A stretch of 64,000 bases of DNA from a virus (IMGVR_UViG_3300024054_000549), one strand, 5' to 3'. Counted from the first letter of the stretch, positions 38,682 to 62,742 are shown. Notes: generated from the sequence alone by a model not told the origin. Numbers and translations: made by a program.

Positions 38682-38709
38682 TATTATAACACAATTTCCT
38701 GAAATGTAA
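38682..38709 (-). promoter_or_regulatory. T4-early-type promoter copy
   Basis: gttattataacacaatttcctgaaatgtaaatac. Confidence 0.6.
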
Positions 38710-38730
38710 ATACCTTTTGAAAAAATATTT

Positions 38731-39096
38731 TCACTTAGTTTCTTGCAACCTGACTAGCGCGTAATTCAAGGCTGCCCATCCTGAACCATCTTCCGCTGTT
38801 AGCAACAGTGTCTGCTCATGGGTTTCACCAGTGATTGTGTGAACGGCCTGATAATCAGCGGCCAAACTTGGCAGCGTTATTTCCAGCGAAATTTCCCAAC
38901 CACCTAGTGTCCATTCAGCCTGTACGCAGCCTTCTGGTGTAGGGTACAAGTGCGGCAAAGGCAGAGTTCTTCCGAGATGTTTATCGAAAACCATCTCCAG
39001 ACGAGTAAGAGAATCTCGATCCAGTACACAGCCTTTACCGTCTAGCCAACCATCTTGCAGTTGCGCCAGTTCTTCAAAGCGGGTTTCGATGTCCAT
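38731..39096 (-). CDS. hypothetical protein, GC-rich (about 50% GC) probable recent acquisition
   Basis: start at MDIETRFEEL (internal Met of track ORF); composition contrasts with flanks. Confidence 0.45.
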   Translation of the reverse strand: MDIETRFEELAQLQDGWLDGKGCVLDRDSLTRLEMVFDKHLGRTLPLPHLYPTPEGCVQAEWTLGGWEISLEITLPSLAADYQAVHTITGETHEQTLLLTAEDGSGWAALNYALVRLQETK

Positions 39097-39103
39097 TGAT
39101 ATT

Positions 39104-39376
39104 TTAATCTGGATTATTAATGAAGCTAAGTTTCTTTTCTTTATCCCAAGATACAGCATATCCGTTATCTTCGTCGAAGATCCTAAGGTACTCTTCCTCA
39201 GAAACTGCACGGGTTGTTGTGAACACTTCATCGAGATGAGATTGAGACAATTCTTTAATAGAATCATCAGCTAACCCACATAGCACAGTATCATTCGCCC
39301 AGTTTTCGTTTTCTGTTCGAACGGCGTATCTCATCTTGAACATAGAAACAGTTTCAACAATAAAAATTTTAGACAT
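39104..39376 (-). CDS. hypothetical protein
   Basis: ORF. Confidence 0.35.
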   Translation of the reverse strand: MSKIFIVETVSMFKMRYAVRTENENWANDTVLCGLADDSIKELSQSHLDEVFTTTRAVSEEEYLRIFDEDNGYAVSWDKEKKLSFINNPD

Positions 39377-39644
39377 TATCTTTTCCTGTATTGTGATTAT
39401 CTACATTATTGTAACGGTCGTGATAGAACATTACTACCAATTCATATCCAAGTAACGAAAATTTTGCACTAAATCCTTTGTCGTATTGTTTTCCTAAAGT
39501 AACATTTAACCCCACCCCTATAATAGTTGTGGTTTTGTAAATCTCAATCTCTAAGATGTTGTTCCAAAAAATGAACTCATAACTTTTAAGTAAAGCAATA
39601 AACCTAGAGAATGGATTACCTAATGAAATGTTAATGTGCAGCAT
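39369..39644 (-). CDS. hypothetical protein
   Basis: ORF. Confidence 0.3.
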   Translation of the reverse strand: MLHINISLGNPFSRFIALLKSYEFIFWNNILEIEIYKTTTIIGVGLNVTLGKQYDKGFSAKFSLLGYELVVMFYHDRYNNVDNHNTGKDNV

Positions 39645-39646
39645 AC

Positions 39647-39832
39647 CTACTCGCCATTATTTTCTTCAAACGAAAAATATTCTGTAATTTCTGATGTAAC
39701 AGCATCGTAAATAGCATTTTTGATAACCTCTTCAGATGGATCTTCAACATGCTTATGAGCACGATTCCATCCGAGATTAATTCCACGATCAATGCATTCA
39801 GATAGAATAGCGTATTCACTGCGAATTTTCAT
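39647..39832 (-). CDS. hypothetical protein
   Basis: ORF. Confidence 0.3.
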   Translation of the reverse strand: MKIRSEYAILSECIDRGINLGWNRAHKHVEDPSEEVIKNAIYDAVTSEITEYFSFEENNGE

Positions 39833-39834
39833 TT

Positions 39835-40395
39835 TTAGTCCTTTACGTTAAAAGTTTCTTCATATTCCTGCTTCCAGTAAGGATCGCTCGTAATCGCTTT
39901 TTCACCTGGCGCCCATTTACCGTTAACAACATCACGAGCGTACATAAAGGAGCATTCAGCACTACTTGCAATAGCTTCTTCGCCCGGTTCCCATTGGTTT
40001 TTGATCAAATCCTGTGCGTACCAACATGAGTACATCGGGCTACTTGCAATTGCTTCTTCACCCGGAGACCAAGGCGCTTCGATTACAAAACGAGCATATT
40101 CAAATGAAAACCTTGGATCACTAGCAATAGCCTTTTCTCCAGGTGCCCAAGGACCTTTGATAATACGCCGGGCGTACTCACATGCATAATGCGCACTACT
40201 TGCTATTGCTTCTTCACCAGATGCCCACGGACCCTTAATGGTGTACCGAGCATACCAATATGAGTACTCCGGGCTTGTTGCCCACAAATGCTCCAGCTCT
40301 TGCTTCTTGTCTTTTGTGTCAGCCTTTATCCAAGCAAGGTCTAACGCATCATCGTTGTTGCGGTAATCCTTCATTTCTCTTAATCCTGTTCCCAT
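39835..40395 (-). CDS. 26-aa tandem-repeat family protein (5 repeats)
   Basis: ..LDLAWIKADTKDKKQELEHLW + 5x (P.YxY.YAR.VIKGPW.PGE.AIAS.) + DPYWKQEYEETFNVK. Confidence 0.7.
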   Translation of the reverse strand: MGTGLREMKDYRNNDDALDLAWIKADTKDKKQELEHLWATSPEYSYWYARYTIKGPWASGEEAIASSAHYACEYARRIIKGPWAPGEKAIASDPRFSFEYARFVIEAPWSPGEEAIASSPMYSCWYAQDLIKNQWEPGEEAIASSAECSFMYARDVVNGKWAPGEKAITSDPYWKQEYEETFNVKD

Positions 40396-40673
40396 TTGTA
40401 CACAGCGTAATAATCACCAGGTGCGCCAAACAAGTGTTCCATGATGGACTTCTTTACCGGAACGTATCCAGCAAAGAACTTTTCTTGCCTCCACCTACGC
40501 TTTGCCGGACGCACTCGGAACCAATGTCGGATTGGTTCGGTACCTTCTTCACCTGCCCATTCCATAAATTCCACAAGGATCTTATATCCATGCTTAGTAG
40601 CCAAGATATGGCCAGGAACTCTGCGGCTCCACTTACCATCGTAGCATACAGCAACAGTCTGTCCTCGCTTCAT
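40380..40673 (-). CDS. hypothetical protein, GC-enriched (about 46-50%)
   Basis: ORF directly downstream of early promoter copy. Confidence 0.4.
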   Translation of the reverse strand: MKRGQTVAVCYDGKWSRRVPGHILATKHGYKILVEFMEWAGEEGTEPIRHWFRVRPAKRRWRQEKFFAGYVPVKKSIMEHLFGAPGDYYAVYKWEQD

Positions 40674-40707
40674 TCCGAAATCCTTTCAATCACCGTTTCG
40701 GTAAGAT

Positions 40708-40735
40708 TATTATAACACAATTTCCTGAAATGTAA
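40708..40735 (-). promoter_or_regulatory. T4-early-type promoter copy
   Basis: gattattataacacaatttcctgaaatgtaaacac. Confidence 0.6.
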
Positions 40736-40806
40736 ACACTTCTGAAAAATATTTTTACAGGTTCGGATTAATTTTGATGTAGATGATTTGTAAAAAATTA
40801 AACATT

Positions 40807-41199
40807 TTACAATTTTACATCAAAGTATTGATTATAATGCTGTTTCCAATATGGATCACTAGCAATAGCTTTCTCGCCTTGTGGCCATTTACCTTTGATA
40901 ATATTGCGAGCATACCAGTATGAGAATTCTGGATTTTTTGCAATCACCTCTTCACCAGGAGACCAAGGGCCCTCAATAACATGATAAGTATACCAATATG
41001 AAAAATCTGGAGTTTTTGCAATCACCTCTTCACCAGGTACCCACGGGCCCTTAATAACATATCGAGCATATAAATATGCGTGTTCTGAACTTGTTGCCCA
41101 TACATGTTCTAGTTTTTGTTTCTTCTCTTTTGTGTTAGCTTTTTTCCATGCAAGGTCTAAAGCTTCAGACATTTTGGTATCTTGATTAACGCTTGACAT
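40807..41199 (-). CDS. 26-aa tandem-repeat family protein (3 repeats)
   Basis: conserved N-term ..LDLAWKKANTKEKKQKLEHVW, repeats, C-term DPYWKQHYNQYFDVKL. Confidence 0.7.
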   Translation of the reverse strand: MSSVNQDTKMSEALDLAWKKANTKEKKQKLEHVWATSSEHAYLYARYVIKGPWVPGEEVIAKTPDFSYWYTYHVIEGPWSPGEEVIAKNPEFSYWYARNIIKGKWPQGEKAIASDPYWKQHYNQYFDVKL

Positions 41200-41215
41200 T
41201 CAGAAATCCTTTCAA

Positions 41216-41650
41216 TCACTGTTGAGGCTTATACTTAGCCAAAGTAAATGCGGTCAACCAAATCTTACTGGCCTCATCTTTATCCCTGAATCCCCTAGGG
41301 AACAAGCGGAACAATTCTTCTTGTACAGCTTGTTTAAATTTAGCATCAAGAACAATTTGCACATGAACCTGATTACTGAGGTCATCAGAAGAGGGCTCAT
41401 TAAATGGTCTGTAGACAAAAACATCAATACACTGACCATCAGCGGCATATTCAGAATACCTGGAATAGTTAGTGAATCCACGTTTTGTTAAATACTCACG
41501 AACGGATTTGGAGTCTTGCACAAAGAAGTCCCAATCTGATTTTTCAGTGAAAGTTCCCCAATAACGAGAGCCTGTCAGATAGAACTCATAAAGTGAAGAT
41601 CGCATTTCAGAAATGATAGAGGGCATGATGTTTTGCATATTGAGCAACAT
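41216..41650 (-). CDS. putative minimal nucleotidyltransferase
   Basis: LTGSRYWGTFTEKSDWDFFV matches hG[GS]x9-13Dh[DE]h NTase-fold motif. Confidence 0.4.
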   Translation of the reverse strand: MLLNMQNIMPSIISEMRSSLYEFYLTGSRYWGTFTEKSDWDFFVQDSKSVREYLTKRGFTNYSRYSEYAADGQCIDVFVYRPFNEPSSDDLSNQVHVQIVLDAKFKQAVQEELFRLFPRGFRDKDEASKIWLTAFTLAKYKPQQ

Positions 41651-41678
41651 GAGATTCTCCTTGTAGTGAACAGTTTAG

Positions 41679-42184
41679 TTAAACATTTTGCAATTTTACG
41701 TTAAAAGTTTCTTCATATTGCTGTTTCCAGTAAGGGTAATTTGTTATCACCTTTTCACCAGGAGCCCATGGCCCCTTGATGACATAACGAGCATACCAGT
41801 ATGAAAACTCTGGATCTTTTGCAATTACTTCCTCACCAGGAGCCCATGGCCCGTTAATAGCATTGAGAGTATATATACCAGCATAATATGGATTACTTGC
41901 AATTACCTCTTCACCAGGTTCCCATGGGCCTTTAATAACATTAATGGCATATAAACATTAATGGCATATAATGCTGCATAATACTCATCATTGGCAATCG
42001 CTTTTTCACCAGGTTCCCATGGGCCCTTAATAACATCACGAGCGTACAGATAAGCATAGATCGGACTGTTAGTCCACAGATGTTCTAGTTCTTGTTTTTT
42101 CTCATCAGTATCTGCACTTTCCCAAGCAATCATTAGTTCTTTATTGGATTTAGGCGTTTTGGTCTCTTGATTAATGCTTGACAT
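41679..42184 (-). pseudogene. 26-aa tandem-repeat family member disrupted by a 17-bp tandem duplication
   Basis: perfect duplication acattaatggcatataa x2 at 41938..41971 shifts frame; downstream frame still encodes ..VIKGPWAPGEKVITNYPYWKQQYEETFNVKLQNV. Confidence 0.6.
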
Positions 42185-42217
42185 TTTGAAATCCTTCAAT
42201 TGCTGTTTCAGTAAGGT

Positions 42218-42245
42218 TATTATAACACAATTTCCTGAAATGTAA
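42218..42245 (-). promoter_or_regulatory. T4-early-type promoter copy
   Basis: ggttattataacacaatttcctgaaatgtaaacac. Confidence 0.6.
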
Positions 42246-42290
42246 ACACTTCTGAAAAATATTTTTACATTGTTAACTGTTAAACAATCT

Positions 42291-42620
42291 TTAGTCATGA
42301 ACAGCAGTTGATACTGTTTGATTATTCTTGTTGAATGCTACTTTGTAACGAGTCAACAAGTTAATCAATCTGTCAGCATCTTGTTCTTTTAGCGAAAAAT
42401 AATCCCAATGACCATACTTTGACTTGTACCCAAAGATATACATTATTGCAACAAAAATTCTTGAATACCATGGAATCCAGTCGTTCAAAAATACTGTTGT
42501 GTATAGTTCAGGATTTTCGCAACTTCCAAATTCATCCATATCAAGGGTGAACTTCAATGTATGTTCGTCTGAATGACAGGAACATTCGAAGAATTCTGTG
42601 CATGATTTATGATCGTTCAT
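42291..42620 (-). CDS. hypothetical protein
   Basis: ORF. Confidence 0.35.
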   Translation of the reverse strand: MNDHKSCTEFFECSCHSDEHTLKFTLDMDEFGSCENPELYTTVFLNDWIPWYSRIFVAIMYIFGYKSKYGHWDYFSLKEQDADRLINLLTRYKVAFNKNNQTVSTAVHD

Positions 42621-42943
42621 ATTACTCTTTCTAGTTTAAGAATTTTTCCATCCATACATAATGCGTTCCACGTTTCTGAGACATAAACGCCGTCCTTATC
42701 TTTGAAATAATCATAGAAACAAATATTTCCACTGAAGTCACCAAGAAATTCCCATATATGAGATACCTCTTCTAAGTATCCACCGAACTCACCATCGTCG
42801 TTCCATTCATACACAATATCTTTGAACCAAAGTTCATTGTCCCGTATTCCATATGTAGCGATGGACTGGCTTGGTGTATCTTTTGTTTGATATGTTTTTC
42901 CATTAAAAACAATATAGTCGAACATTCCCATGATTAATCCCAA
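42617..42943 (-). CDS. hypothetical protein
   Basis: ORF. Confidence 0.35.
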   Translation of the reverse strand: MGLIMGMFDYIVFNGKTYQTKDTPSQSIATYGIRDNELWFKDIVYEWNDDGEFGGYLEEVSHIWEFLGDFSGNICFYDYFKDKDGVYVSETWNALCMDGKILKLERVI

Positions 42944-43629
42944 AGTGCTTGAAAATAAGTACCAAACAGCCTTAAACCGTTAGTAATTCGTTCTTGATGT
43001 TTAGTACGACCGTCCCAATCACATTCACCTTTTACCTTCCAAACAACAGGAGAAACACCGTTGCTAGAATCCGACTTAGATAAATCTAATTCAGGTTTAA
43101 TGATCCAGTATTGATCTTCCCAATTGGAATCTGGCTGCAATTGCTCAAACGCCCAGATCATTTCATTAATAATCCACTCCCAACGACTATGAATATTGCA
43201 CTGAACATTTTGATTGCATAATTCAGAATCTTGGTAAAAATCAAAAGTCAGTTGAGAATCGTAATCTTCTGTTTCTATAAATCGCATTTCAAGAGGGACA
43301 TCACTTAATTCAACCATAGGTGAACCGTGCTTCTCTTGACTTAACTTTTTCAGCATAGGCAAAATAATCAACGCCAGTGTTGAGTACATTGACCAAATAT
43401 CGTAGTGATCAATATGAATCTTTACTTTCCTTTGCCTTGTCTCATTGATCCATTGACAAAGATCATCAACCCACGTTTCAGCTAACCATTCAGCAAAATC
43501 GTTATGGAATTTGTAATCCCACCGTTTTTCTAATTCATCCTCAGGATACTTTTCATGCCAGAAGAATAGTTTATCGGCAATTTGATATGGGCCAATGTAA
43601 TTAACGTAAGGACCAATTTTAACCTTCAT
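42934..43629 (-). CDS. hypothetical protein
   Basis: ORF. Confidence 0.4.
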   Translation of the reverse strand: MKVKIGPYVNYIGPYQIADKLFFWHEKYPEDELEKRWDYKFHNDFAEWLAETWVDDLCQWINETRQRKVKIHIDHYDIWSMYSTLALIILPMLKKLSQEKHGSPMVELSDVPLEMRFIETEDYDSQLTFDFYQDSELCNQNVQCNIHSRWEWIINEMIWAFEQLQPDSNWEDQYWIIKPELDLSKSDSSNGVSPVVWKVKGECDWDGRTKHQERITNGLRLFGTYFQALWD

Positions 43630-43898
43630 ATAATTAATACTCCTGTTGCTCTAGTCCTAGGAGTGTTATCTTTATCACCATCAAAATATGATTCTTCTTC
43701 ATGAGGACCATAATACCACTCATCATTCACATAAAGAAGTAAATTAATACTTTCTACAGTAACTGGATTATAGTACCCACCTTCATACCCCTTTTGAACT
43801 ATCTCAAGATTCCCATCGAATTCTTTTAAAAGTTCAATTAATTCTTTAACCTTCATTTTTACCCCCGAACTCATATTCTTCGAAAATATAATGCCCAC
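43626..43898 (-). CDS. hypothetical protein
   Basis: ORF. Confidence 0.35.
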   Translation of the reverse strand: MGIIFSKNMSSGVKMKVKELIELLKEFDGNLEIVQKGYEGGYYNPVTVESINLLLYVNDEWYYGPHEEESYFDGDKDNTPRTRATGVLII

Positions 43899-44262
43899 CT
43901 CGTCGCGATTGCACCCAATTAAAGTGCCACATCATTTCATTTTCTTGCATAGCTTTTATAATAGATTCATTACCTGACCAGCCGCATGTCGAAATGTAAT
44001 GCCTGTGTACCATTTTTTTCTTGAAGTCGTGCTCTTCATCTCGCTCATTCCATCGAATGTTACTATAGAACCAAACACTCTTGATGAATTGGAGATACCC
44101 GGAAGGATCTGACCAATGCCAAATTCTGATAATATCTAAACATTCGGTTGTTGGATATCCATCTTCATCAAGCATTTCACATTTCATTAGCTCCTGTACT
44201 TTGCTTTTTGATTCGGCAATGTCAAGCTGCAATTCTTCGTTGAAATCTCGTTCAATATTCAT
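43846..44262 (-). CDS. hypothetical protein
   Basis: ORF. Confidence 0.35.
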   Translation of the reverse strand: MNIERDFNEELQLDIAESKSKVQELMKCEMLDEDGYPTTECLDIIRIWHWSDPSGYLQFIKSVWFYSNIRWNERDEEHDFKKKMVHRHYISTCGWSGNESIIKAMQENEMMWHFNWVQSRRGGHYIFEEYEFGGKNEG

Positions 44263-44388
44263 TTTATTTTTTTGAAGTTTTAATTTTATCAGAAATATAT
44301 TCTATAAACATTTCTATGAAATTCAAAAACGGAAATACAAGTATTCCCAGAACTAAACCCAAAGCGAACATTTCTTCAATTTCCATAA

Positions 44389-45267
44389 TTATACCTCAAA
44401 TATTAGTGGTTCAAAATCATCTGCACTTGCCTCATGATTAGCGTAACCACGAGGATTACAAATGATACGAGTAGTTCCGATAAGATAATCGAACTTGTCA
44501 TGCGTATGTCCGTGTGTCCATACCTTAATTTGAGGATGATCAAGAATGAATTCCTCAAGTGAGCTAGAATACCCACCATTCATATGAAAGTCATCCAAAT
44601 ATCGCTGTTTAGTACTCAAACGACTCGGCGCATGGTGCGTACATACCACAAATGTCTCATCGGATTTCCCCTCAATCATATCTGTCAAATAATCAACGAA
44701 CTTATAGAACTCGTCAGCCGCATCATCTGGGCTGAAGTAACTTGGTTCTTTGACATATTTGTAGCTACTCTGAATTTTAATCCCTCGATCATCTTCTTCG
44801 TAAATAGGAACCTTTTTACTTGTCATAACATTACTGTTCTGAATAACACTAAAATCATTCAGGTTATTTTTCATGCGTTGAATGGTTATTGGATTCCTCG
44901 AGTTCATATTCGTCCACATAGTGCCACCAATAAAGGTAACTCCGTCGATACTAACCGATTCGTTGTCTAGAAAATGAATGTTTTTGTATTCCGCCATACA
45001 CTTACGAATATGTTGTGCGGACGTAGCAAAATCAGTATGGTAGTGCTCATGGTTCCCCATGATGTAAATTACATCCTTGAACTTCGAACTTACGTTTTTA
45101 AGAAACTCATGGAACCGTTTAGATTTAGGAATCTGAAAGAGGTTCAACGGCTCAAAATCCGAAGCCAAAAGGATATCACCACCGAGAATGAGCACATCTG
45201 CATCGACATCAGTAAATGCATATGACCCAAATTCAAGATGCATATCAGAGCATTGGGCTATTTTCAT
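44389..45267 (-). CDS. calcineurin-like metallophosphoesterase
   Basis: motifs DMHLE, GGDIL, GNHEHY, GHTHD; start taken at MKIAQCSD because the track start lies inside the promoter. Confidence 0.7.
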   Translation of the reverse strand: MKIAQCSDMHLEFGSYAFTDVDADVLILGGDILLASDFEPLNLFQIPKSKRFHEFLKNVSSKFKDVIYIMGNHEHYHTDFATSAQHIRKCMAEYKNIHFLDNESVSIDGVTFIGGTMWTNMNSRNPITIQRMKNNLNDFSVIQNSNVMTSKKVPIYEEDDRGIKIQSSYKYVKEPSYFSPDDAADEFYKFVDYLTDMIEGKSDETFVVCTHHAPSRLSTKQRYLDDFHMNGGYSSSLEEFILDHPQIKVWTHGHTHDKFDYLIGTTRIICNPRGYANHEASADDFEPLIFEV

Positions 45268-45300
45268 TTCAATACTTTCAACTGTTGTTTCAGTAAAATT

Positions 45301-45328
45301 ATTATAATACAATTTCTAAAAATGTAAA
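45301..45328 (-). promoter_or_regulatory. T4-early-type promoter copy
   Basis: attataatacaatttctaaaaatgtaaacac. Confidence 0.55.
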
Positions 45329-45334
45329 CACTTC

Positions 45335-49724: not shown

Positions 49725-50462
49725 TTATAATTTTACTTTGAAGTATTGTTCATACTCCTGTTTCCAGCGAGGATCACTTGCAATCGCTTTTTCTCCAGGT
49801 GGCCATGGGTTTTTGATAACATTGCGAGCATACTGATAAGCATAACATGCACTACTTGCAATCGCTTCTTCACCAGGTTCCCATGGACCATTGATGACAT
49901 GGTAAGCATACATATATGCATAATATGAATTACTTATAATCGCTTCCTCACCAGGTGGCCACACTCCGTTAACAACCTCACGAGCATATGTATACGCATA
50001 ATATGGCTTTCTTGCAATCACTTTTTCGCCAGGTTCCCACGGACCTTTGATTACGCGATGAGCATACATATATGCATATTTCGGATCGCTAGCTATTGCT
50101 TTTTCACCAGGTTCCCACGGACCTTTGATGACATGACAAGCATACATATACGCATATTCTGTGTTATTTGCAATAGCACTTTCTCCACGAGCCCATGGTC
50201 CTTTGGTAACATAATAAGCATACCAATATGCACATTTTGGATTACTAGCAATTGCTTCTTCACCTAGTGACCATGGTTTTCGAAGAACTTCATGGGAATA
50301 TTTAAATGCATATTCTGGATTACTTGCCCACAAATGTTCTAGTTCTTGTTTCTTCTCATTTGTATTTGCCACTTCCCAAGCAATCTCTGGCACTTTCAGG
50401 TGTGCATCTTTATATCCAAATAATGCATTTGGATCAGAATACAATTTGTAAAAGTTAAGCAT
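49725..50462 (-). CDS. 26-aa tandem-repeat family protein (7 repeats)
   Basis: MLNFYKLYSDPNALFGYKDAHLKVPEIAWEVANTNEKKQELEHLW + 7 repeats + DPRWKQEYEQYFKVKL. Confidence 0.75.
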   Translation of the reverse strand: MLNFYKLYSDPNALFGYKDAHLKVPEIAWEVANTNEKKQELEHLWASNPEYAFKYSHEVLRKPWSLGEEAIASNPKCAYWYAYYVTKGPWARGESAIANNTEYAYMYACHVIKGPWEPGEKAIASDPKYAYMYAHRVIKGPWEPGEKVIARKPYYAYTYAREVVNGVWPPGEEAIISNSYYAYMYAYHVINGPWEPGEEAIASSACYAYQYARNVIKNPWPPGEKAIASDPRWKQEYEQYFKVKL

Positions 50463-51045
50463 TTTGTAATTTTACATTAAAAGTTTTTTCATAATGCTGT
50501 TTCCAATATGGATCACTTGCAATCGCCTTCTCGCCTAGTGGCCATGAATTTTCGATAACATAATAAGCATATCTGTACGCACATTCTGAGTTACCTGCAA
50601 TCGCTTTCTCGCCCAATGGCCACGGTTTTTGAAGAACATAATGAGCATACCAATATGCATATCCCGGATTACTAGATATCGCTTTTTCACCAGATGGCCA
50701 CGGTTTTTTGATCACATCACGAGCATATAAAAATGCATATTTTGGATTATTAGCAAGCACTTTTTCTCCAAGCGGCCATTTACCTCCAACAATACCATAG
50801 GCGTACTCATAAGCATATTCTGTATTACTTGCAATCGCCATCTCTCCGGGCAACCACGGTTTTTTGATTACATAACAAGCATATAAAAACGCATGTTTTG
50901 GACTACTTACCCACAAATGTTCTAGTTCTTGTTTTTTCTCATTTGTATCTGCCACTTCCCATGCAACACTCGGTACTTTCAGGTGTGCATCTTTATATCC
51001 AAATAATTGATTTGGATCTGAATGCAATTTGTAAAAGTTAAGCAT
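50455..51045 (-). CDS. 26-aa tandem-repeat family protein (5 repeats)
   Basis: same architecture; start overlaps previous stop (AATGCTTAA). Confidence 0.75.
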   Translation of the reverse strand: MLNFYKLHSDPNQLFGYKDAHLKVPSVAWEVADTNEKKQELEHLWVSSPKHAFLYACYVIKKPWLPGEMAIASNTEYAYEYAYGIVGGKWPLGEKVLANNPKYAFLYARDVIKKPWPSGEKAISSNPGYAYWYAHYVLQKPWPLGEKAIAGNSECAYRYAYYVIENSWPLGEKAIASDPYWKQHYEKTFNVKLQNA

Positions 51046-51046
51046 T

Positions 51047-51550
51047 TTATAATTTTACTTTGAAGTGTTCTTCATAATACTGTTTCCACTCAGGATTATC
51101 AGCAATCGCTTTTTCCCCGGGTTCCCACGGGTTTTTAATTATCCTAAATGCATACCAAAAAGCATGGTATGAGCTTCTTGCAATCACCTTCTCACCAGGT
51201 TCCCATGGATTTTTGATAACATCACGGGCATACATATACGCATATGCCGAATCACTTGCAATCGCTTTTTCTCCAGGTTCCCATGGGTTTTTGATTACCT
51301 CACGGGCATACCAATATGCATATTTCGGATCACTTGAAATTACCTTCTCGCCCAATAACCATGGTTTTTTGATTACATCACAAGCATACCAATATGCATA
51401 TTCTAGATAACGTGCCCACAAATGTTCTAGTTCTTGTTTTTTCTCATTTGTATCTGCCACTTCCCAAGCAATCTCTGGTATTTTTAGATGTGCATCTTTG
51501 TATCCATTTAATTGATTTGGATCAGAATGTAATTTATAAAAGTTAAGCAT
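51047..51550 (-). CDS. 26-aa tandem-repeat family protein (4 repeats)
   Basis: same architecture. Confidence 0.75.
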   Translation of the reverse strand: MLNFYKLHSDPNQLNGYKDAHLKIPEIAWEVADTNEKKQELEHLWARYLEYAYWYACDVIKKPWLLGEKVISSDPKYAYWYAREVIKNPWEPGEKAIASDSAYAYMYARDVIKNPWEPGEKVIARSSYHAFWYAFRIIKNPWEPGEKAIADNPEWKQYYEEHFKVKL

Positions 51551-51977
51551 TTGAAAAATTCAATTTAAAGTGATTTTCATACTCCTGTTTCCAATCTGGA
51601 TCGCTTGCTATCGCTTTTTCACCAGATGGCCATGGTTTTCGAAGAACATAACAAGCATACATATATGCATATGCTGGATCACTAGATATTGCTTTTTCAC
51701 CAGGTTCCCATGGTTTTTTGATAACATAATAAGCATATTCATATGCATATCTTGGGTCACTTGTTATAACCTTCTCACCAGGTGACCATTTACCCCTAAC
51801 GATATCATAGGCATACTCATATGCATATCTTGGATCATGTATCCACAAATGTTCTAGTTCTTGTTTCTTTTCATTTGTGTCTGCCACTTCCCAAGCAATC
51901 TCTGGTATTTTTAGATGTGCATCTTTGTATCCATTTAATTGATTTGGATCAGAATGTAATTTATAAAAGTTAAGCAT
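51543..51977 (-). CDS. 26-aa tandem-repeat family protein (3 repeats)
   Basis: same architecture. Confidence 0.75.
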   Translation of the reverse strand: MLNFYKLHSDPNQLNGYKDAHLKIPEIAWEVADTNEKKQELEHLWIHDPRYAYEYAYDIVRGKWSPGEKVITSDPRYAYEYAYYVIKKPWEPGEKAISSDPAYAYMYACYVLRKPWPSGEKAIASDPDWKQEYENHFKLNFSNA

Positions 51978-52533
51978 TTGGTAATTTTACTTTGAAGTGT
52001 CGTTCATATTGCTGTTTCCAATATGAATCACTAGCAATCACCTTCTCACCGGGTTCCCATGGTCCTTTAATGACATCACGAGCATATCCATATGCAGATT
52101 CTGCATCACTCGCAATAGCTTTTTCACCTGGTTCCCATCGTCCTTTAACAATGTCTTGGGCATACATATATGCATAAAGTGGATCAGTTAAAATTGCATT
52201 CTCACCAGGTGACCATGGCTTTTTAATAATAAGGAGTGCATATGTATATGCAAATTGCGGAACACTTGCAATTGCTTCTTCCCCGGGTTCCCACCTTCCA
52301 TTGATAACATCAGTTGAATACCAACAAGCATACTCTGGGCTACTTGCAATAGCCTTTTCTCCAAGGGGCCAGGGCTTATTGAGTATAATATGTGCATATT
52401 CATATGCATACTTTGGACTTGCTGCCCATACATGCTCTAGTTCACGTTTTTTCTTTTTTGTGTTTGCATTTTTCCCGGTAACACTCGGTACTTCATTACA
52501 CAATGAAGAGTTAACCTCTTGAGTACTTGTCAT
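51970..52533 (-). CDS. 26-aa tandem-repeat family protein (5 repeats, divergent N-terminus)
   Basis: ..KKKKRELEHVW + repeats + DSYWKQQYERHFKVKLPNA; first gene after promoter copy. Confidence 0.7.
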   Translation of the reverse strand: MTSTQEVNSSLCNEVPSVTGKNANTKKKKRELEHVWAASPKYAYEYAHIILNKPWPLGEKAIASSPEYACWYSTDVINGRWEPGEEAIASVPQFAYTYALLIIKKPWSPGENAILTDPLYAYMYAQDIVKGRWEPGEKAIASDAESAYGYARDVIKGPWEPGEKVIASDSYWKQQYERHFKVKLPNA

Positions 52534-55922: not shown

Positions 55923-55950
55923 ATTATAACATCATTTTTGAAAATGTAAA
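55923..55950 (-). promoter_or_regulatory. T4-early-type promoter copy
   Basis: cgttattataacatcatttttgaaaatgtaaacaa. Confidence 0.55.
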
Positions 55951-56015
55951 CAAAATTTTGCATATTTTTGATATTTGATTTCAGATAGTATCTTGATTAA
56001 TGTAACCCGTAAAGA

Positions 56016-56373
56016 TTAAACATCTGGTAGTTTTACATTAAATATTTTTTCATAATGCTGTTTCCAATATGGTCTACTTGCAATCGCTTTTTCTCCAAGT
56101 TCCCATGGATGTTTTGATTACAAAACGAGCATACAAAAACGCATACATAGATTCACGGGCTATCGCCTCCTCACCTGGTTCCCATGGTTCCCGAAGAACT
56201 TCATAGGCATATTTAAACGCATATTCTGCATCACTTGCCCACAAATGTTCTAGTTTTTGTTTCTTCTTATTTGTATTTGCTACTTTCCAAGCAATACTAG
56301 GTACTTTCAAGTGTGCATCTTTGTATCCAAACAATTCATTTGGATTGGTATGTAATTTGTAGAAGTTAAGCAT
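56016..56373 (-). pseudogene. 26-aa tandem-repeat family member with internal frameshift
   Basis: in-frame ORF stops after 99 aa (..RFVIKTSMGTWRKSDCK); other frame continues ..RFVIKHPWELGEKAIASRPYWKQHYEKIFNVKL. Confidence 0.55.
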
Positions 56374-56374
56374 T

Positions 56375-57034
56375 TTATAATGTTACATTAAAAGTTTCTT
56401 CGTACACCTGTTTCCAGTATGGATTACTTGCAATTGCTTTCTCTCCCGGTTCCCATTGTTTTTTGATTACATAAAGAGCATACCTATATGCATATTCTTG
56501 ATCACTGGCAATCACTTTCTCACCCAATTCCCATGGCCCCTTGATAACATTAACAGCATACCAGTATGCATATTTCGAATTACTTGCAATAGCTTCCTCT
56601 CCGGGTTTCCATGGTTTTTTAATTATATCACGAGCATATAAAAATGCATAATATAGATTTCTTGCAATAGCTTCCTCACCAAGAGACCAAGGTTTTTTGA
56701 TGATATCACGAATATACCTATATGAATATTCTGGGTTTCTGGAAATCACATTTTCACCAGGTTCCCATGGTTTTTTGATTACATCATTGGCATACAAATA
56801 TGCATACCTTGGATTACTAGCAATAGCTTCCTCTCCAGGTGGCCATGGTTTTTGAAGAATATAGCGTGCATACCAATATGAGTATTCTGGACTTGTTGTC
56901 CATAAATGCTCTAGCTCTTGTTTTTTCTCTTTTGTGTCAGCCACTTTCCAAGCAATACTTGGTACTTTCAGATGTGCATCTTTGTATCCAAATAATGTAT
57001 TTGGAACAGAATGTAATTTGTAGAAGTTAAGCAT
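56375..57034 (-). CDS. 26-aa tandem-repeat family protein (6 repeats)
   Basis: same architecture. Confidence 0.75.
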   Translation of the reverse strand: MLNFYKLHSVPNTLFGYKDAHLKVPSIAWKVADTKEKKQELEHLWTTSPEYSYWYARYILQKPWPPGEEAIASNPRYAYLYANDVIKKPWEPGENVISRNPEYSYRYIRDIIKKPWSLGEEAIARNLYYAFLYARDIIKKPWKPGEEAIASNSKYAYWYAVNVIKGPWELGEKVIASDQEYAYRYALYVIKKQWEPGEKAIASNPYWKQVYEETFNVTL

Positions 57035-57035
57035 T

Positions 57036-57539
57036 TTATAATGTTACATTAAACGTTTTTTCATATCGCTGTTTCCAATATGGATTTCTTGCAATAGCTT
57101 TCTCGCCAGGTGCCCATGGTTGTTTGATTACATGGTAAGCATACATATATGCATAATATGGATTACTTGCAATAGCTTTCTCTCCAAGTTCCCATGGTTG
57201 TTTGATTACATGGTAAGCATACATATATGCATAATATGGATCACTAGATATTGCCTTCTCTCCAGGTTCCCATGGATGTTTGATTACATCACGAGCATAC
57301 AAAAATGCATACGCCGTGATACTTGCTATTACCTTCTCACCTGGTGACCATGGTTTTTTGATAACATCACGAGCATACACATATGCGTGTTCTGGGTTAC
57401 TTACCCACAAATATTCTATTTTTCGTTTCTTTTCATTTGTGTTTGCTACTTCCCAAGCAATTTCTGGTATTTTCAGATGTGCATCTTTGTATCCAAACAA
57501 TTCATTTGGATCAGAATGCAATTTGTAAAAGTTAAGCAT
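57036..57539 (-). CDS. 26-aa tandem-repeat family protein (4 repeats)
   Basis: start at MLNFYKL; contains two identical adjacent repeats (YYAYMYAYHVIKQPW). Confidence 0.75.
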   Translation of the reverse strand: MLNFYKLHSDPNELFGYKDAHLKIPEIAWEVANTNEKKRKIEYLWVSNPEHAYVYARDVIKKPWSPGEKVIASITAYAFLYARDVIKHPWEPGEKAISSDPYYAYMYAYHVIKQPWELGEKAIASNPYYAYMYAYHVIKQPWAPGEKAIARNPYWKQRYEKTFNVTL

Positions 57540-57558
57540 TTTACTAATTAAATTCAAA

Positions 57559-58281
57559 CTACTTAAAATACTGACTGTAATGCTTTTTGATCAAAAAGTT
57601 AAGAAATTTGGTATATTCCGGAATCTTGCTCAATTCAGCAATATCGGCGGGCGATACAGCTAAGTCGTTTTTATCCATGAACTGATTTGATTCTGCATGA
57701 AGTTGGAATTTTTTGATTTTACAATTAATAGTAGCCAAAATAATATACAGATCACCTTGTGATGCATAATAATCGTACCGATTATGCTCTTCATCCGGCG
57801 TAGAAGTACACCATTTGGTGTCTTTGCCGTACATATATGCATCTTCTTTGGTTCTAGGAATAATTACCTTGAAATTTTGAGTATAAATTAACCGAACAGA
57901 TTTGTTGTTTGATGTCATCTCGTAATTGTCAATATCATCAACCGATTCTTCATCATCAGTTAAAGAGTACAGCTGAGCCAAATCTTTGATCTGGTTTAGA
58001 TCTTTAATGGGCAATCTAGCCCGACGTTGTAAAAAGATACTAATGGAATTCTTAATACGATGAACATCTTCCAGCTTAAATTGATTTTTGGCGTACATAT
58101 TAGCAATGAACTGGATATTTTTTCCAGATTCAGGATCAGCTTGCTGCAACTGTGTTAACAATTCTGCTGTACAGATGTTATGCCCTAAATCCCGTATTGA
58201 CGACTCAGTAAGACGAGTTCTCATTGATTGTGCAATATAATCCACTCTGCGATTAACAAATGGTGTTTCGATGTTGTTCAT
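57559..58281 (-). CDS. hypothetical protein (240 aa) embedded in the array
   Basis: ORF; unrelated to repeat family. Confidence 0.4.
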   Translation of the reverse strand: MNNIETPFVNRRVDYIAQSMRTRLTESSIRDLGHNICTAELLTQLQQADPESGKNIQFIANMYAKNQFKLEDVHRIKNSISIFLQRRARLPIKDLNQIKDLAQLYSLTDDEESVDDIDNYEMTSNNKSVRLIYTQNFKVIIPRTKEDAYMYGKDTKWCTSTPDEEHNRYDYYASQGDLYIILATINCKIKKFQLHAESNQFMDKNDLAVSPADIAELSKIPEYTKFLNFLIKKHYSQYFK

Positions 58282-58289
58282 ATTTCACT

Positions 58290-58690
58290 TTCTGATTGGC
58301 AATTTACGTTGAAAATTTCTTCGTATTTCTATTTTAACCACGGCTTACTTGCTACTGCTTTTTTTCACCGAGTTCTTCTTTCTGTTCTTCTCTTTTTCCT
58401 TAGCTGCTTCTTCTGTTTTGTGCTTGACATCCAATGCTTTGTGATTAATTCACCAATTTTTCAAATCAACACGGGTGATACCCTCTTCTTTGTAGTCGAT
58501 TGTATCCAAAGGGATCAACATCAATCAGCACAACACGCTCTAATGCTGCCAAAGTTTGACACAGCGCCGACTGCGGCGAAAGATACCTACTTCTTCAATC
58601 CACTAATTTCTGATTGGTAGTAGGAATTTGGATACTCATCATAATAGTCTCTGCAAGGCATTTTCACTTGCTCCTTTAAAGTATGAATAC
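58290..58690 (-). pseudogene. degraded coding region downstream of promoter copy
   Basis: only short frame-hopping ORF fragments (..ERVVLIDVDP / LIPLDTIDYKEEGITRVDLKNW / Lys-rich tail). Confidence 0.35.
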
Positions 58691-58704
58691 GTTTAGGTAA
58701 AATC

Positions 58705-58732
58705 ATTATAACACAATTTCTAAGAATGTAAA
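58705..58732 (-). promoter_or_regulatory. T4-early-type promoter copy
   Basis: atcattataacacaatttctaagaatgtaaacaa. Confidence 0.55.
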
Positions 58733-58802
58733 CAAAATTTTACATATTTTTGATATTTAATTTCAGACAATCACTTAAATTAATATGTTAAAGTTAATCA
58801 TT

Positions 58803-59384
58803 TTACAGTTTTACCTTAAAGTATTGTTCATACTGCTGTTTTAAATATGGATCACTAGATATTGCCTTCTCTCCAGGTTCCCATGGATGTTTGATTACAT
58901 CACGAGCATATCTGTAAGCATATTCTGGACTTGTTGCAATCGCTTCCTCACCAGGTTCCCATGGTTCCCGAAGAATATAATAAGCATACACATACGCATA
59001 TTTCGGATCACTAGATATTGCTTTCTCACCAGGTTCCCATGGTTTTTTAAGAACATAACAAGCATATTTAAACGAATGTTCTGGATTACTTGCAATAGCT
59101 TTCTCTCCAAGTTCCCATGGTTGTTTGATTACATGGTAAGCATACACATACGCATATTTCGGATCACTAGATATTGCCTTCTCTCCAGGTTCCCATGGTT
59201 CCCGAAGAACTTCATAGGCATATTTAAATGCATATTTCGGACTACTTACCCACAAATGTTCTAGTTTTTGTTTCTTCTCTTTTGTGTCAGCCATTTCCCA
59301 AGCAATACTTGGTACTTTCAGATGTGCATCTTTGTATCCAAATAATGTATTTGGATCAGAATGTAATTTGTAGAAGTTAAGCAT
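58803..59384 (-). CDS. 26-aa tandem-repeat family protein (5 repeats)
   Basis: same architecture. Confidence 0.75.
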   Translation of the reverse strand: MLNFYKLHSDPNTLFGYKDAHLKVPSIAWEMADTKEKKQKLEHLWVSSPKYAFKYAYEVLREPWEPGEKAISSDPKYAYVYAYHVIKQPWELGEKAIASNPEHSFKYACYVLKKPWEPGEKAISSDPKYAYVYAYYILREPWEPGEEAIATSPEYAYRYARDVIKHPWEPGEKAISSDPYLKQQYEQYFKVKL

Positions 59385-59967
59385 TTGGTAATTTTACATT
59401 AAAAGTTTTTTCATACTGCTGCTTCCATTTTGGATCACTCACTATTGCTTTCTCGCCAGGTGCCCATGGTTGTTTGATTACATGGTAAGCATACATATAT
59501 GCATAATATGGATTACTTGCAATAGCTTTCTCTCCAAGTTCCCATGGATGTTTGATTAATTCACGGGCATACCTATATGAATAATATGAACTACTTGCAA
59601 TTGCTCTCTCACCAGGCTCCCATGGTTTTTTGATTACATCACGAGTATACCTATATGAATATTCTGGGTTACTGGAAATCACCTTTTCTCCAAGAGGCCA
59701 CAAATTTTCAATTACATTGTAAGCATACATATATGAATACCTTGGATCACTTGCAATCGCGTTCTCACCCGGTGGCCATGGTTTCTTGATAACCGTTTGT
59801 ACATACCAATATGCATACCTCGGATCACTTGCCCACAAATATTCTAGTTCTTGTTTCTTCTCAGTTGTGTCTGCAAAATCCCATGCAACACTCGGCACTT
59901 TTAAATGTGCATCTTTGTATCCAAATAATGTATTTGGAACAGAATGTAATTTGTAGAAGTTAAGCAT
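59377..59967 (-). CDS. 26-aa tandem-repeat family protein (5 repeats)
   Basis: same architecture. Confidence 0.75.
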   Translation of the reverse strand: MLNFYKLHSVPNTLFGYKDAHLKVPSVAWDFADTTEKKQELEYLWASDPRYAYWYVQTVIKKPWPPGENAIASDPRYSYMYAYNVIENLWPLGEKVISSNPEYSYRYTRDVIKKPWEPGERAIASSSYYSYRYARELIKHPWELGEKAIASNPYYAYMYAYHVIKQPWAPGEKAIVSDPKWKQQYEKTFNVKLPNA

Positions 59968-60604
59968 TTGGTAATTTTACATTAAATGCTTTTTCATACT
60001 GTGATTTCCAGTCAGGATCACTCGCTATTGCTTTCTCTCCAAGAGACCATGGATTTTTAATATAAAAACGAGCATACCAATATGCATAACCTGGATCACT
60101 AGATATTGCTTCCTCGCCAGGTTCCCATGGTCCTTTGATTACATTACAAGCGTACTTATATGAGTATTCTGGATTACTTGCAATCGCTGTCTCACCTAGT
60201 GGCCATGGTTTTTGAAGAACATAATGAGCGTACATATACGCATGTTCTGGACTACTTGCAATTACATTCTCGCCCGGTGGCCATGCGTCTTTAATGACAT
60301 AAAGAGCGTACCTATATGTATATCTTGCGTTACTTGCAATCGCTGTCTCACCTAGTGGCCATGGTTTTTGAAGAACATAATGAGCATATTCATACGCATA
60401 TTTCGGATCACTAGCAATTACCTTTTCACCTGGTTCCCATGGATTTTGAAGAACGAAACGAGCATACCTATAAGCATAAATAAGATTGCTTGCCCACAGA
60501 TGTTCTAGTTCTTGTTTCTTCTCTTTTGCAACTGCTTTTTCCCAAGCTATACTTAGTAATTTATCGTATAAAGATGATTCAGTATTTTGATTGGTACTTG
60601 ACAT
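59960..60604 (-). CDS. 26-aa tandem-repeat family protein (6 repeats, divergent N-terminus)
   Basis: first gene after promoter copy. Confidence 0.7.
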   Translation of the reverse strand: MSSTNQNTESSLYDKLLSIAWEKAVAKEKKQELEHLWASNLIYAYRYARFVLQNPWEPGEKVIASDPKYAYEYAHYVLQKPWPLGETAIASNARYTYRYALYVIKDAWPPGENVIASSPEHAYMYAHYVLQKPWPLGETAIASNPEYSYKYACNVIKGPWEPGEEAISSDPGYAYWYARFYIKNPWSLGEKAIASDPDWKSQYEKAFNVKLPNA

Positions 60605-60637
60605 TTTGGTTCTTTACAGAAACTATTTCAGTAAAGT

Positions 60638-60666
60638 TATTATAACACAATTTCTAAGAATATAAC
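60638..60666 (-). promoter_or_regulatory. T4-early-type promoter copy (weaker -35)
   Basis: agttattataacacaatttctaagaatataaccac. Confidence 0.5.
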
Positions 60667-60685
60667 CACTTCTTGAAAAATATTT

Positions 60686-61054
60686 TTACGTTTCGAACAT
60701 TTTTCGTTCCATAGAATAAAGTGAATCTAATGCTTTATTCATGTCGCGATCATAAATTGCCTTTTCGATCATTCGGAAATCTGTTCTAAATTCACCAAAA
60801 ATAGCTTCGATTACTTGTTTCTTTGTTCTTTCTACAGCAGCAGACAAATCTGAATTTGCATCGCGTTTTTGCAGCATATCACTAATTGTGACCCTTGCAC
60901 CAAGAGTTACAGAAATTTGATATGTTTTTGCATCAGACGACGAAGAGTTAATCCACCTTGCCTCCGCATCGAACATTTCATTGAACAGTACCTGAGGAAC
61001 TACTCCGTGTTCTGTAACTCCTAGAACTGAAATTGCTTTTACTACATTACTCAT
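60686..61054 (-). CDS. hypothetical protein
   Basis: ORF. Confidence 0.4.
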   Translation of the reverse strand: MSNVVKAISVLGVTEHGVVPQVLFNEMFDAEARWINSSSSDAKTYQISVTLGARVTISDMLQKRDANSDLSAAVERTKKQVIEAIFGEFRTDFRMIEKAIYDRDMNKALDSLYSMERKMFET

Positions 61055-61154
61055 AATTCTCTTTAATCAAATTTTCATTTATAAAATACAATCGAACCAA
61101 ATTCAAAAGCATCATTAATCCTTGAACTAATGATGCTTTTTCATATCAATATAA

Positions 61155-61409
61155 TTATTGTTCTGAACTCTGTGTCATGGGTCGTAGCCCACGATATCGA
61201 CTAATGAAAAACGTTCGACCCTCTGCATCTTTGCAGTGTCCCACAAAAATCCCACCAGGGAAAGACCGGGCAAAACTTTGCTTGTACTGTTCAGAAGCAA
61301 CTACACACTCGTATTGCGACCTGAATTGAATATACCGATTTGCTTCTGCTGGTGATTCAGCAGTTTTTGCAAAACTAAATACTAGAAAAGATGCTGTTAC
61401 AAAATCCAT
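61155..61409 (-). CDS. small secreted protein (signal peptide, 2 Cys), GC-enriched
   Basis: MDFVTASFLVFSFAKTA signal-like N-terminus; about 45% GC. Confidence 0.4.
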   Translation of the reverse strand: MDFVTASFLVFSFAKTAESPAEANRYIQFRSQYECVVASEQYKQSFARSFPGGIFVGHCKDAEGRTFFISRYRGLRPMTQSSEQ

Positions 61410-61457
61410 GATAACTCCATAAAAAAAAATTAATTTAAATTGTTTATTTAACTCTAT

Positions 61458-62477
61458 TTATTCCTTGCTTTTCAACAAGAAACGATTAGAAATTGCTTTA
61501 AAATGAATATTCGGGTCTGTTAAACACTTGAAAACTAATCCTTCGCGTTCTGTACCAGGGTTCAGTACAGATTTTCCCTCGGCAAGATTAAGTAAAAATT
61601 CAACATTCATTTCGTACCCATTATGATTGATATCATTAGTTAAAATAGGTACATGAGGAACAGAAAGTTCTTGCGCTAGATTAACTCGCTCACTTCCAAA
61701 ATAGTACCGTTTTTCTTTCTCTGAATAAACATCAAAAACATAGAAATCTTGACCATGCAGTTTGTATGGGTTTCCTTGAATCCCTTCACCAATAAGTTCA
61801 CCCTGGATGGCTATACCGAATAAACCCATCGCGCGCATTTTGTTCTCGATATCATACTTGATTGCCATCTTCCAAAAACTATTTGATTCAGATGGTTTTA
61901 AATCAATGTTCCGAGAGCACACATGAAAGTTCCCATCTACGTCAAGATAAAATGTACATGATGAACCATCTAGTTTTTCGGTAATTTCGAACTCTTTACC
62001 TTCCCATTCTTTGATTTCTTTGGTTAAGTTCTGGCACCGTTCTTGATCAGTTTTTGGAATCTCCGATGGGAACATTCCAATAATTTCACCGGCTAATTCC
62101 GCAGGAATTGGAGCTTCCCATTTAATAATGCCAAGTTGCTCGGATACGTCGGCTCCTTCTTCGTGAACATAAATCTTGTTCTGAAGAACATGCAAAGGAA
62201 GGATTAGTCCTTGTGATACTTGCCCACGAAGTTTCACTGTACGGAGACGATTGCCTTTGATGTTCTCATATTCCTTTGGTTCATTTTTAGTTAAAAATGG
62301 TGCAATTTCATGCGGAACCCAAGAATCAATTTCAAGATAGATAACTAAATCTCCTACAGAGAATTCGCCCTTTTTAACTACTACTTTCCAACCATCGACT
62401 ACGGCTATTTCAATCGCATCTGCATTTGGAATTGATTCAATACCAGAAATACACCGGATTGTTGCTAATTTACGCAT
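61458..62477 (-). CDS. RNA ligase, DraRnl/Rnl5-like (N-terminal OB domain + nucleotidyltransferase)
   Basis: N-terminal MRKLATIRCISGIESIPNADAIEIAVVDGWKVVVKKGEF (OB-like) and ligase motif I KLDGS. Confidence 0.6.
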   Translation of the reverse strand: MRKLATIRCISGIESIPNADAIEIAVVDGWKVVVKKGEFSVGDLVIYLEIDSWVPHEIAPFLTKNEPKEYENIKGNRLRTVKLRGQVSQGLILPLHVLQNKIYVHEEGADVSEQLGIIKWEAPIPAELAGEIIGMFPSEIPKTDQERCQNLTKEIKEWEGKEFEITEKLDGSSCTFYLDVDGNFHVCSRNIDLKPSESNSFWKMAIKYDIENKMRAMGLFGIAIQGELIGEGIQGNPYKLHGQDFYVFDVYSEKEKRYYFGSERVNLAQELSVPHVPILTNDINHNGYEMNVEFLLNLAEGKSVLNPGTEREGLVFKCLTDPNIHFKAISNRFLLKSKE

Positions 62478-62490
62478 TTTTATTCACTTA

Positions 62491-62691
62491 TCAAAAAATT
62501 ACCTTTTCGTAGCCAGATTCTTCAAGATAATTATGAACGTCTCCCAGAGATGTATTATTGAACTTTAATACAACCTGAAACGGCTGTATATTTGAACTCA
62601 ATTCGTAAGAATAAGAACCCTTGCGCCAAAGAACAAATGTTTTACCGTTTTTGTCATACTTAGAAATAAATTGAGTTTCGTACATGATCAT
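62491..62691 (-). CDS. hypothetical protein
   Basis: ORF after promoter copy. Confidence 0.35.
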   Translation of the reverse strand: MIMYETQFISKYDKNGKTFVLWRKGSYSYELSSNIQPFQVVLKFNNTSLGDVHNYLEESGYEKVIF

Positions 62692-62713
62692 CTCTTACTG
62701 TTTTGGTAATGTT

Positions 62714-62742
62714 ATTATAACAGCATAATTTGAAAAGTAAAC
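62714..62742 (-). promoter_or_regulatory. T4-early-type promoter copy (variant)
   Basis: gttattataacagcataatttgaaaagtaaaca. Confidence 0.5.

Follow-up and report, generated by a model that had tools for sequence, protein, structure and literature searches.

Near-identical T4-type cassettes in an uncultured T4-superfamily myovirus are predicted to act as strong early promoters

The viral DNA IMGVR_UViG_3300024054_000549, analyzed here as a window of 64,000 nucleotides (nt), carries near-identical elements dispersed among small genes, and the question raised by this locus is what these elements do and why they resemble one another so closely. The source is an uncultured T4-superfamily myovirus: the window encodes a T4-type portal, tail sheath, both topoisomerase II subunits, DNA polymerase, DnaB-like helicase and ligase, and the portal, which matches >2,500 T4-like records, is 68% identical to those of the Vibrio phages Va1, phiKT1024, pv27 and phiTY18 and ~45% identical to those of Campylobacter T4-like phages. 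A megablast of 20 kb against phage records gave no nucleotide match. We judge, at a probability of roughly 85%, that the elements, hereafter cassettes, are strong early promoters read by unmodified host sigma-70 RNA polymerase, a judgment that rests on sequence comparison. Promoters of this kind are already known as a way in which T4-type phages seize the host RNA polymerase.

The pattern GTTTACA-N16-TATAAT, searched as N14-20, gave 10 matches vs 0.05 expected in shuffles, all on the minus strand, and allowing two mismatches added the copies at 38683, 47479, 60639 and 62714. Named by the low coordinate of the -10 hexamer, the 13 listed copies stand at 34162, 38683, 40709, 42219, 45301, 46281, 47479, 49552, 52569, 55923, 58705, 60639 and 62714 (P34162 to P62714 below). 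An earlier note on this DNA had given 13 coordinates, each of which holds a minus-strand copy and is off by at most 1 nt; the range that it assigned to the family does contain copies, although its start at 38682 omits the note's own copy at 34162, and its literal pattern, TGTTTACA-N15-18-TGnTATAAT, has 0 matches because the spacing was mis-stated, the actual layout being TGTTTACA-N13-TGTTATAAT, i.e. TTTACA, 16 nt and TATAAT. A position weight matrix built from the cassette copies and spanning -37 to -5 (the final T of the -10 hexamer being numbered -7) scored the 13 copies at 31-48 bits, no other position of the window on either strand exceeded 8 bits, and the top score in 20 shuffled windows was 8.3 bits; this bimodality indicates that the cassette family is sharply discrete. 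The window holds at least 14 copies in total, the 13 listed and a divergent one at 17412, with the 13 lying between 34 and 63 kb at about one per 2.2 kb and the stretch from 0 to 34 kb holding 1, and at least two more lie just past the window end, at positions 94 and 1306 of the 100%-identical contig L083. The cassettes are co-oriented with the genes, each heads ~2-9 small open reading frames (ORFs), most of which lack known relatives, and PHROG matches are almost absent from the genes that come first behind the promoters. The former description, in which a copy precedes each sub-array and each small early gene, was right in outline but too dense: not every gene has its own copy, and there is about one per 2-9 genes, at distances of 1-4.5 kb.

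Each cassette opens with an A/T-rich UP-element-like block, after which come GTGTTTACATTT, a spacer rich in A, TGTGTTATAAT and, as conserved start region, (A)CTGAAACAG, and the consensus of the 13 copies reads aAaatttTt.aaA.a.gT-GTTTACA-TTTt.agAAATTGTGT-TATAAT-AA..tT-ACtgAAACAg...tTGaAa. Mean pairwise identity was 0.45 at -60 to -38, 0.84 at -37 to -29, 0.65 at -28 to -16, 0.98 at -15 to -7, 0.49 at -6 to -1, 0.67 at +1 to +10 and 0.44 at +11 to +20, and was 0.29-0.30 beyond -60 and 0.26-0.32 beyond +20, where the random expectation is 0.28; ungapped pairwise extension ended at ~-57 and +20 in the closest pairs. Since the similarity ends sharply at ~-60 and ~+20, the unit is ~80 bp long and runs into the transcript. 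That conservation extends past the hexamers had been noticed before and is borne out by these regional identities above random expectation; its downstream reach into the transcribed leader had gone unmentioned.

The best-conserved positions are known polymerase contacts, and much of the extra conservation also matches known contacts, namely the UP element and the TRTG extended -10. Nine of the 13 copies have an exact GTTTACA and the others depart from it by 1-2 mismatches, whereas TATAAT is intact in all 13, with TGTGTTATAAT as the extended -10 stretch. In 12 copies a TG stands before the -10 box, position -14 being G in those 12 and position -15 being T in all 13, and the TGTG ahead of TATAAT is the extended -10 or "TRTG" motif. 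The spacer from TTTACA to TATAAT measures 16 nt in the 13 copies and 17 nt only in the copy at 17412. The predicted +1 is an A in 11 of 13, with a T just before it. Upstream, the A at -41 is invariant among copies, and the block agrees with 9-13 of the 14 specified positions of the E. coli UP consensus, which may not be that of the host; random windows on the same strand agree at 7.9 +/- 1.4 of 14 positions and reach 12 or more in only 0.6%. The consensus used, AAAWWTWTTTTNNNAAA, is reportedly that of Estrem et al. from 1998. Downstream, a co-oriented ATG lies 23-46 nt past the -10 box at each copy, with a Shine-Dalgarno sequence in most, and the leaders are A-rich, with predicted folding no better than shuffles (z near 0). 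A conserved RNA structure in the leader was ruled out by these z values and by a hairpin of 3-4 bp that is intact in only about half of the copies.

As the T4 consensus we used the one given in PMC1524935 and PMC2988021, together with a direct scan of 50 kb of T4. In T4 early promoters GTTTAC occupies -36 to -31, the sequence 5' of -12 is rich in G and T, TATAAT follows, the UP region is A-rich and consensus extends outside the boxes as well; reviewers name them "uber" UP/-35/TGn/-10 promoters that out-compete host promoters (PMC1524935, PMC2988021). The match to this consensus that the earlier note had pointed to holds in detail: the cassettes share GTTTAC, whose fourth base is T, not G, as it is in T4, RB69 and 44RR, the GT-rich TGn extended -10 joined to TATAAT, the A-rich UP-like region and the consensus outside the hexamers, and they too occur in many copies, co-oriented with early genes and ORFs without relatives, in a genome of T4 type. 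Short-query BLAST of one cassette gave matches in intergenic regions of T-even phages, and the T2 promoter downstream of alt has the 22-nt string TGTGTTATAATAATCTTACTGA in common, in register. Two differences were found: the TTTACA-TATAAT spacer is 17 nt in T4 and T2 (PMC4122927 for T4) and 16 nt here, and the spacer and +1 to +10 are far more uniform here than among the T4 examples inspected.

The version in Va1, which belongs to the closest cultured lineage, reads aaaagtGTTTACTT..GAAATGaCTATAAT and occurs in about 7-10 copies; it shares aaaagtGTTTAC, the 16-nt spacing, GAAAT in the spacer, TGnTATAAT and a conserved start region, and differs in the sequence of that start region (taaatcatagtcaagaag vs a.cttACTGAAACAG) and in the -35 flank (GTTTACTT, not GTTTACATT). 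No published description of the cassette of Va1, phiKT1024, pv27 or phiTY18 was found. The 16-nt spacer and the conserved start region are lineage-specific traits, and through these cassettes the T4 early-promoter design is extended to a distant lineage whose relatives include Vibrio phage Va1 and Campylobacter phages.

The other two T4 promoter classes fit the cassettes poorly. The MotA box of T4 middle promoters, (a/t)(a/t)(a/t)TGCTTtA centred at -30, is absent, -37 to -29 reading GTGTTTACA in every copy, with no TGCTT, and late promoters have TATAAATA at -13 to -6 and no -35 box, whereas the cassettes carry TATAAT and a -35 box. Elsewhere in the window, TATAAATA boxes stand at 3936, 10853, 10891, 12102, 12123 and 34743, co-oriented with and directly before gene starts; they precede structural genes, and one precedes the sole plus-strand gene of the early region, at 34771-35301. 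The total count of TATAAATA in the window is not above chance and the signal lies in the placement. With late boxes before structural genes, the three-class scheme of T4 plausibly applies to this phage.

If the cassettes are early promoters, polymerase carrying host sigma-70 would read them immediately after DNA injection. Each ~80-bp cassette would stack every known polymerase contact element: the A/T-rich block at ~-57 to -38 would serve the alpha C-terminal domains, and further contacts would be made by the T4-type -35 GTTTACA, the A-rich 16-nt spacer and the TRTG/TGn extended -10 joined to TATAAT. Transcription would probably start at an A 7 nt past the -10 box and continue into an unstructured, A-rich leader of 23-46 nt with a Shine-Dalgarno sequence. 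The 13 copies in 29 kb would drive co-directional transcripts through the small-gene blocks, and these transcripts probably overlap; no terminators are evident between the units, and T4 early transcripts also run on into downstream genes. So many strong promoters would out-compete host promoters for polymerase, as in T4.

Several points weigh against the early-promoter reading. Promoter activity, early timing and start sites are predictions; the match is to a consensus of the E. coli type, an extrapolation that may not suit the host; and the 16-nt spacer, 1 nt below that of T4, is shorter than the E. coli optimum of 17 (PMC2613000). Contig L092, the nearest non-identical relative found, with a phosphoesterase identity of 80% at the protein level and 79% at the DNA level, is without any cassette copy. 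No structural variants at cassettes were found among the contigs that carry window proteins, which come from several metagenome samples and are all 99.95-100% identical, so that they give no evidence of ongoing recombination. Lastly, the conservation of +2 to +10 and of the AGAAAT block in the spacer is not obviously explained by polymerase contacts. For +1 to +10, the most economical explanation is an initial transcribed sequence tuned for promoter escape, combined with an unstructured leader for translation. The transcribed region is said, by Kammerer et al. in EMBO J in 1986, to contribute to the strength of T5 N25 / T7 A1-type early promoters; the conservation into +1 to +20 seen here may likewise serve promoter escape, although the sequences are unrelated.

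The segments outside the polymerase contacts could also be accounted for by a promoter combined with an operator, a reading that we consider unlikely. In that case the spacer dyad ATTTC..GAAAT / AGAAAT and a near-palindrome at +1 to +11, ACTG-AAA-CAGT, would bind a phage protein that shuts off or processes the early transcripts together, which could be a DNA-binding repressor, an RNA-binding factor or a nuclease. The identities of the spacer (0.65) and of +1 to +10 (0.67) are well above the 0.28 background, but spacer and initial transcribed sequences alter promoter strength and escape without an extra factor (PMC2613000), and A- and T-tracts in AT-rich DNA readily yield apparent dyads. ACYGAAACRG is enriched, with 4 occurrences vs 0.24 expected, solely after cassettes, and the copy at 40709 has both palindrome arms altered together (ACCG..CGGT); the palindrome, however, is merely 4+3+4 nt and intact in ~half of the copies, and as an RNA hairpin it would be marginal, the leaders having no significant folding. 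The start region of Va1 is conserved but different (taaatcatagtcaaga), as a lineage-specific factor would predict, and the mechanism of T4 early shut-off is stated to be unexplained (PMC2988021).

As to the protein, a family of 14 paralogs is encoded behind several cassettes; its members are ~190 amino acids (aa) long and 45-75% identical, give weak, repeated matches to HTH_35 (winged-helix), and form tandem arrays on the minus strand at 39835-42184, 49725-52533, 56074-57557 and 58803-60604, in which some members are truncated. In tblastn against the phage record collection the family had no match. No candidate regulator is linked to the site, though, and the more specific version of this idea is quite doubtful: that the AGAAAT block, together with the near-palindrome ACTGAAACAG(T) in the transcribed part, makes up a lineage-specific control site for a phage factor, which would act on the DNA or on the 5' ends of early mRNAs to switch off, stabilise or process the whole early regulon, and which might be one of the 14 winged-helix-like paralogs. 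If true, a site of this kind would address how T4-type phages shut off their early transcription.

For the uniformity of the copies, two causes are suggested by the sequences: selection for polymerase contacts, and duplication with short-patch recombination. The copies are mosaic. P55923 and P58705 have ~130 nt upstream in common, reaching into the 3' end of paralog genes, yet in the spacer P58705 carries the sequence of P60639 and P55923 resembles P49552; P47479 and P62714, 15 kb apart, have a common block only at -61 to -38 (24 nt); and the distance matrices of the upstream and downstream blocks are uncorrelated (Mantel r = 0.13, p = 0.17). Mosaic copies are what crossovers inside the cassette are expected to leave, and they fit the PeSL model, by which modules of T4-like phages are shuffled through conserved early-promoter cassettes (PMC2839356, PMC4122927); crossovers in PeSLs have been mapped to the A/T-rich region and to the stretch from the -10 box to the ATG (PMC2839356). 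Spread by recombination, one of two explanations that the earlier note had offered for the extra conservation, the other being a further regulatory site in the spacer, is thus reasonable and supported by the mosaic copies, and is already published as the PeSL model; both explanations are reasonable, neither is new, and current understanding is unchanged. Recombination of this kind would make the cassettes portable junctions for gene modules and for the expansion of the paralog arrays.

On another account, the copies would be alike only because the paralog arrays underwent recent tandem duplication in which each promoter was copied along with its gene, with no selection on the cassette and no mobility of its own. 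P60639, P52569 and P42219 do directly precede members of the family, P60639 and P42219 even have the first codons of the downstream gene in common, and P55923 and P58705 each come after the 3' end of a family member, where the ~130 nt are common to them; but most cassettes precede unrelated genes, the similarity ends at ~-60 and +20 and does not reach the flanking genes, blocks within the cassette give conflicting nearest neighbours, and the best-conserved positions are exactly the polymerase contact elements, which makes this account very unlikely.

The likeness to PeSLs (Arbiol 2010, PMC2839356; Comeau 2014, PMC4122927) comprises an A/T-rich block, a sigma-70-type promoter, a Shine-Dalgarno sequence and an ATG, dispersal between genes without relatives in a variable genome region, and mosaic copies, whereas the defining stem-loop terminator is absent here. 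That the cassettes are true PeSLs, terminator-plus-promoter cassettes that insulate each module transcriptionally, is improbable, since for all that the region is rich in ORFs without relatives, that A/T block, promoter, Shine-Dalgarno and ATG come in the published order (PMC4122927) and that a weak A/T palindrome, GAAAAATATTTTTC, is present at -58 to -40 of five copies, pattern scans gave no terminator-like site or G+C-rich stem upstream of any copy, folding of -120 to -36 gave z near 0, no better than shuffles, in 12 of the 13 early-region cassettes, and the palindrome lacks a trailing U-run and overlaps the UP-like block. With the stem-loop missing, the elements are not classed as PeSLs; they would be T4-type early promoters behaving like PeSLs without the stem-loop, and their mosaic copies give indirect support to promoter cassettes as recombination junctions even in its absence.

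PeSLs are further characterised by marking the breakpoints of indels or replacements between close relatives and by forming mini-circles, and two observations come from other contigs. Two independent metagenome contigs of the same phage, L098 and L099, both end at 42240, inside P42219, where assembly probably broke off because P40709 is a 91%-identical cassette. L092 lacks, between two genes that it shares with the window, a 1.39-kb window segment comprising P46281, three ORFs and P45301; because L092 is a mosaic genome with TTGAC-type promoters, the missing segment is weak evidence.

Read as early promoters, the cassettes provide a ready transcription map of the early region of an uncultured T4-superfamily phage, with at least 14 units, and mark genes without relatives that are probably expressed first and are candidates for host takeover or anti-defence. 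A further use might lie in Gammaproteobacteria, where the cassette could be tried as a compact promoter, probably of very high strength.

The cassette was also sought outside this phage. In IMG/VR the exact cassette had 0 matches and a degenerate cassette-plus-leader pattern had 2, both single-copy; a metagenome scan for the cassette core returned only one single-copy promoter, from an unrelated low-GC bacterium, and indicated that GAAATTGTGTTATAAT is a generic strong-promoter string; and none of the relatives reached through the RNA ligase, at 80 loci, has the present cassette. Contigs of other uncultured large phages that share the RNA ligase, L003 (at 9673/11008/12822), L049 and L051, carry near-identical cassettes of their own, e.g. 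GGTTGACACTCCTTCATCTTGTGCTATACTACACCCATAGAC and gattacaaatttgtaataaaact..TTGACAGCC..TGGTATAAT, so that genome-specific, homogenised promoter cassettes seem common.

The individual cassettes, each taken from ~-60 to +20 and all on the minus strand, differ in detail and in the units that they head. P62714 (62688..62767; 31.7 bits) has the -35 box GTTTACT and the -10 stretch TGTTATAAT, and the ORF after it, of 64-66 aa, starts at 62691 or 62685. P60639 (60613..60692; 42.0 bits), with GGTTATA at -35, heads a tandem array of three paralog genes from 60604 down to 58803. P58705 (58679..58758; 45.0 bits), whose spacer is identical to that of P60639, heads a 24-aa ORF, ~300 nt without ORFs, a 240-aa gene and three genes of the paralog family. 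P55923 (55897..55976; 40.9 bits) heads ~9 small ORFs from 55877 down to 52823, P52569 (52543..52622; 36.6 bits) a five-gene paralog array from 52533 down to 49725, and P49552 (49526..49605; 44.6 bits) ~6 small ORFs. P47479 (47453..47532; 36.4 bits) has GTTTATA at -35 and shares its -61 to -38 block with P62714 only, and P46281 (46255..46334; 44.4 bits) heads a module of three ORFs that ends at the next cassette. In P45301 (45275..45354; 44.2 bits) TAT replaces TGT before the -10 box, and the unit consists of a calcineurin-like phosphoesterase gene and seven ORFs.

P42219 (42193..42272; 48.3 bits) is 91% identical to P40709 over 89 nt and heads a truncated gene of the paralog family, and P40709 (40683..40762; 48.3 bits) has the leader ACCGAAACGG vs ACTGAAACAG in other copies. 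P38683 (38657..38736; 44.2 bits), with ATTTACA at -35, heads ~12 ORFs including those of SPFH-family and RNase T-like proteins, and P34162 (34136..34215; 41.4 bits), with a 1-nt shift of its leader motif, is followed by a 40-aa ORF and a gene for a 745-aa S8-type protease. The divergent 14th copy (17386..17466, core 17412-17441) combines TGTTTACAT, a 17-nt spacer and TATAAT with no TG; the phage tmRNA gene lies directly upstream of it, and a 155-aa ORF that starts at 17382 lies downstream. Other identifiable genes of the region encode an RNA ligase, a DHH phosphoesterase, the calcineurin-like phosphoesterase, the SPFH protein and the RNase T-like exonuclease.

The tmRNA, at 17496-17855 on the minus strand between the helicase gene and the 14th copy, is full length (Rfam RF00023, 207 bits), and ARAGORN gives its tag peptide as ANDERFALAA; it was the only Rfam match over the region. 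Structured RNA in the two ORF-free gaps, at 58282-58590 (~300 nt) and 41651-41905, was rejected. The former, on the minus strand after the 24-aa ORF behind P58705, gave z = 0.5 and no Rfam match; the latter, with a duplicated GGGCCATGGGCTCCTGGTGA motif, looks like a decayed member of the paralog family.

The DNA polymerase may be split into two genes, since a 529-aa ORF at 22517-24106 (minus strand; within 21194-24106) matches only the first ~490 of the 856 positions of the PHROG DNA-polymerase profile; the polymerase of Va1 is annotated as two ORFs with a homing endonuclease gene between them. On L083, which belongs to the same phage, two adjacent genes at 6341-8258, ~2-4 kb past window position 64000, carry flagellar domains, one Flagellin_N and Flagellin_C (273 aa) and the other a flagellar basal-body rod C-terminal domain (343 aa), an unusual cargo for a T4-like phage. 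Finally, a perfect 16-bp hairpin, AAAAGCATCATTAGTT-CAAG-GATTAATGATGCTTTT, lies between two small genes at 61105-61140 on the minus strand, remote from the cassettes, and could be a terminator or a processing site.

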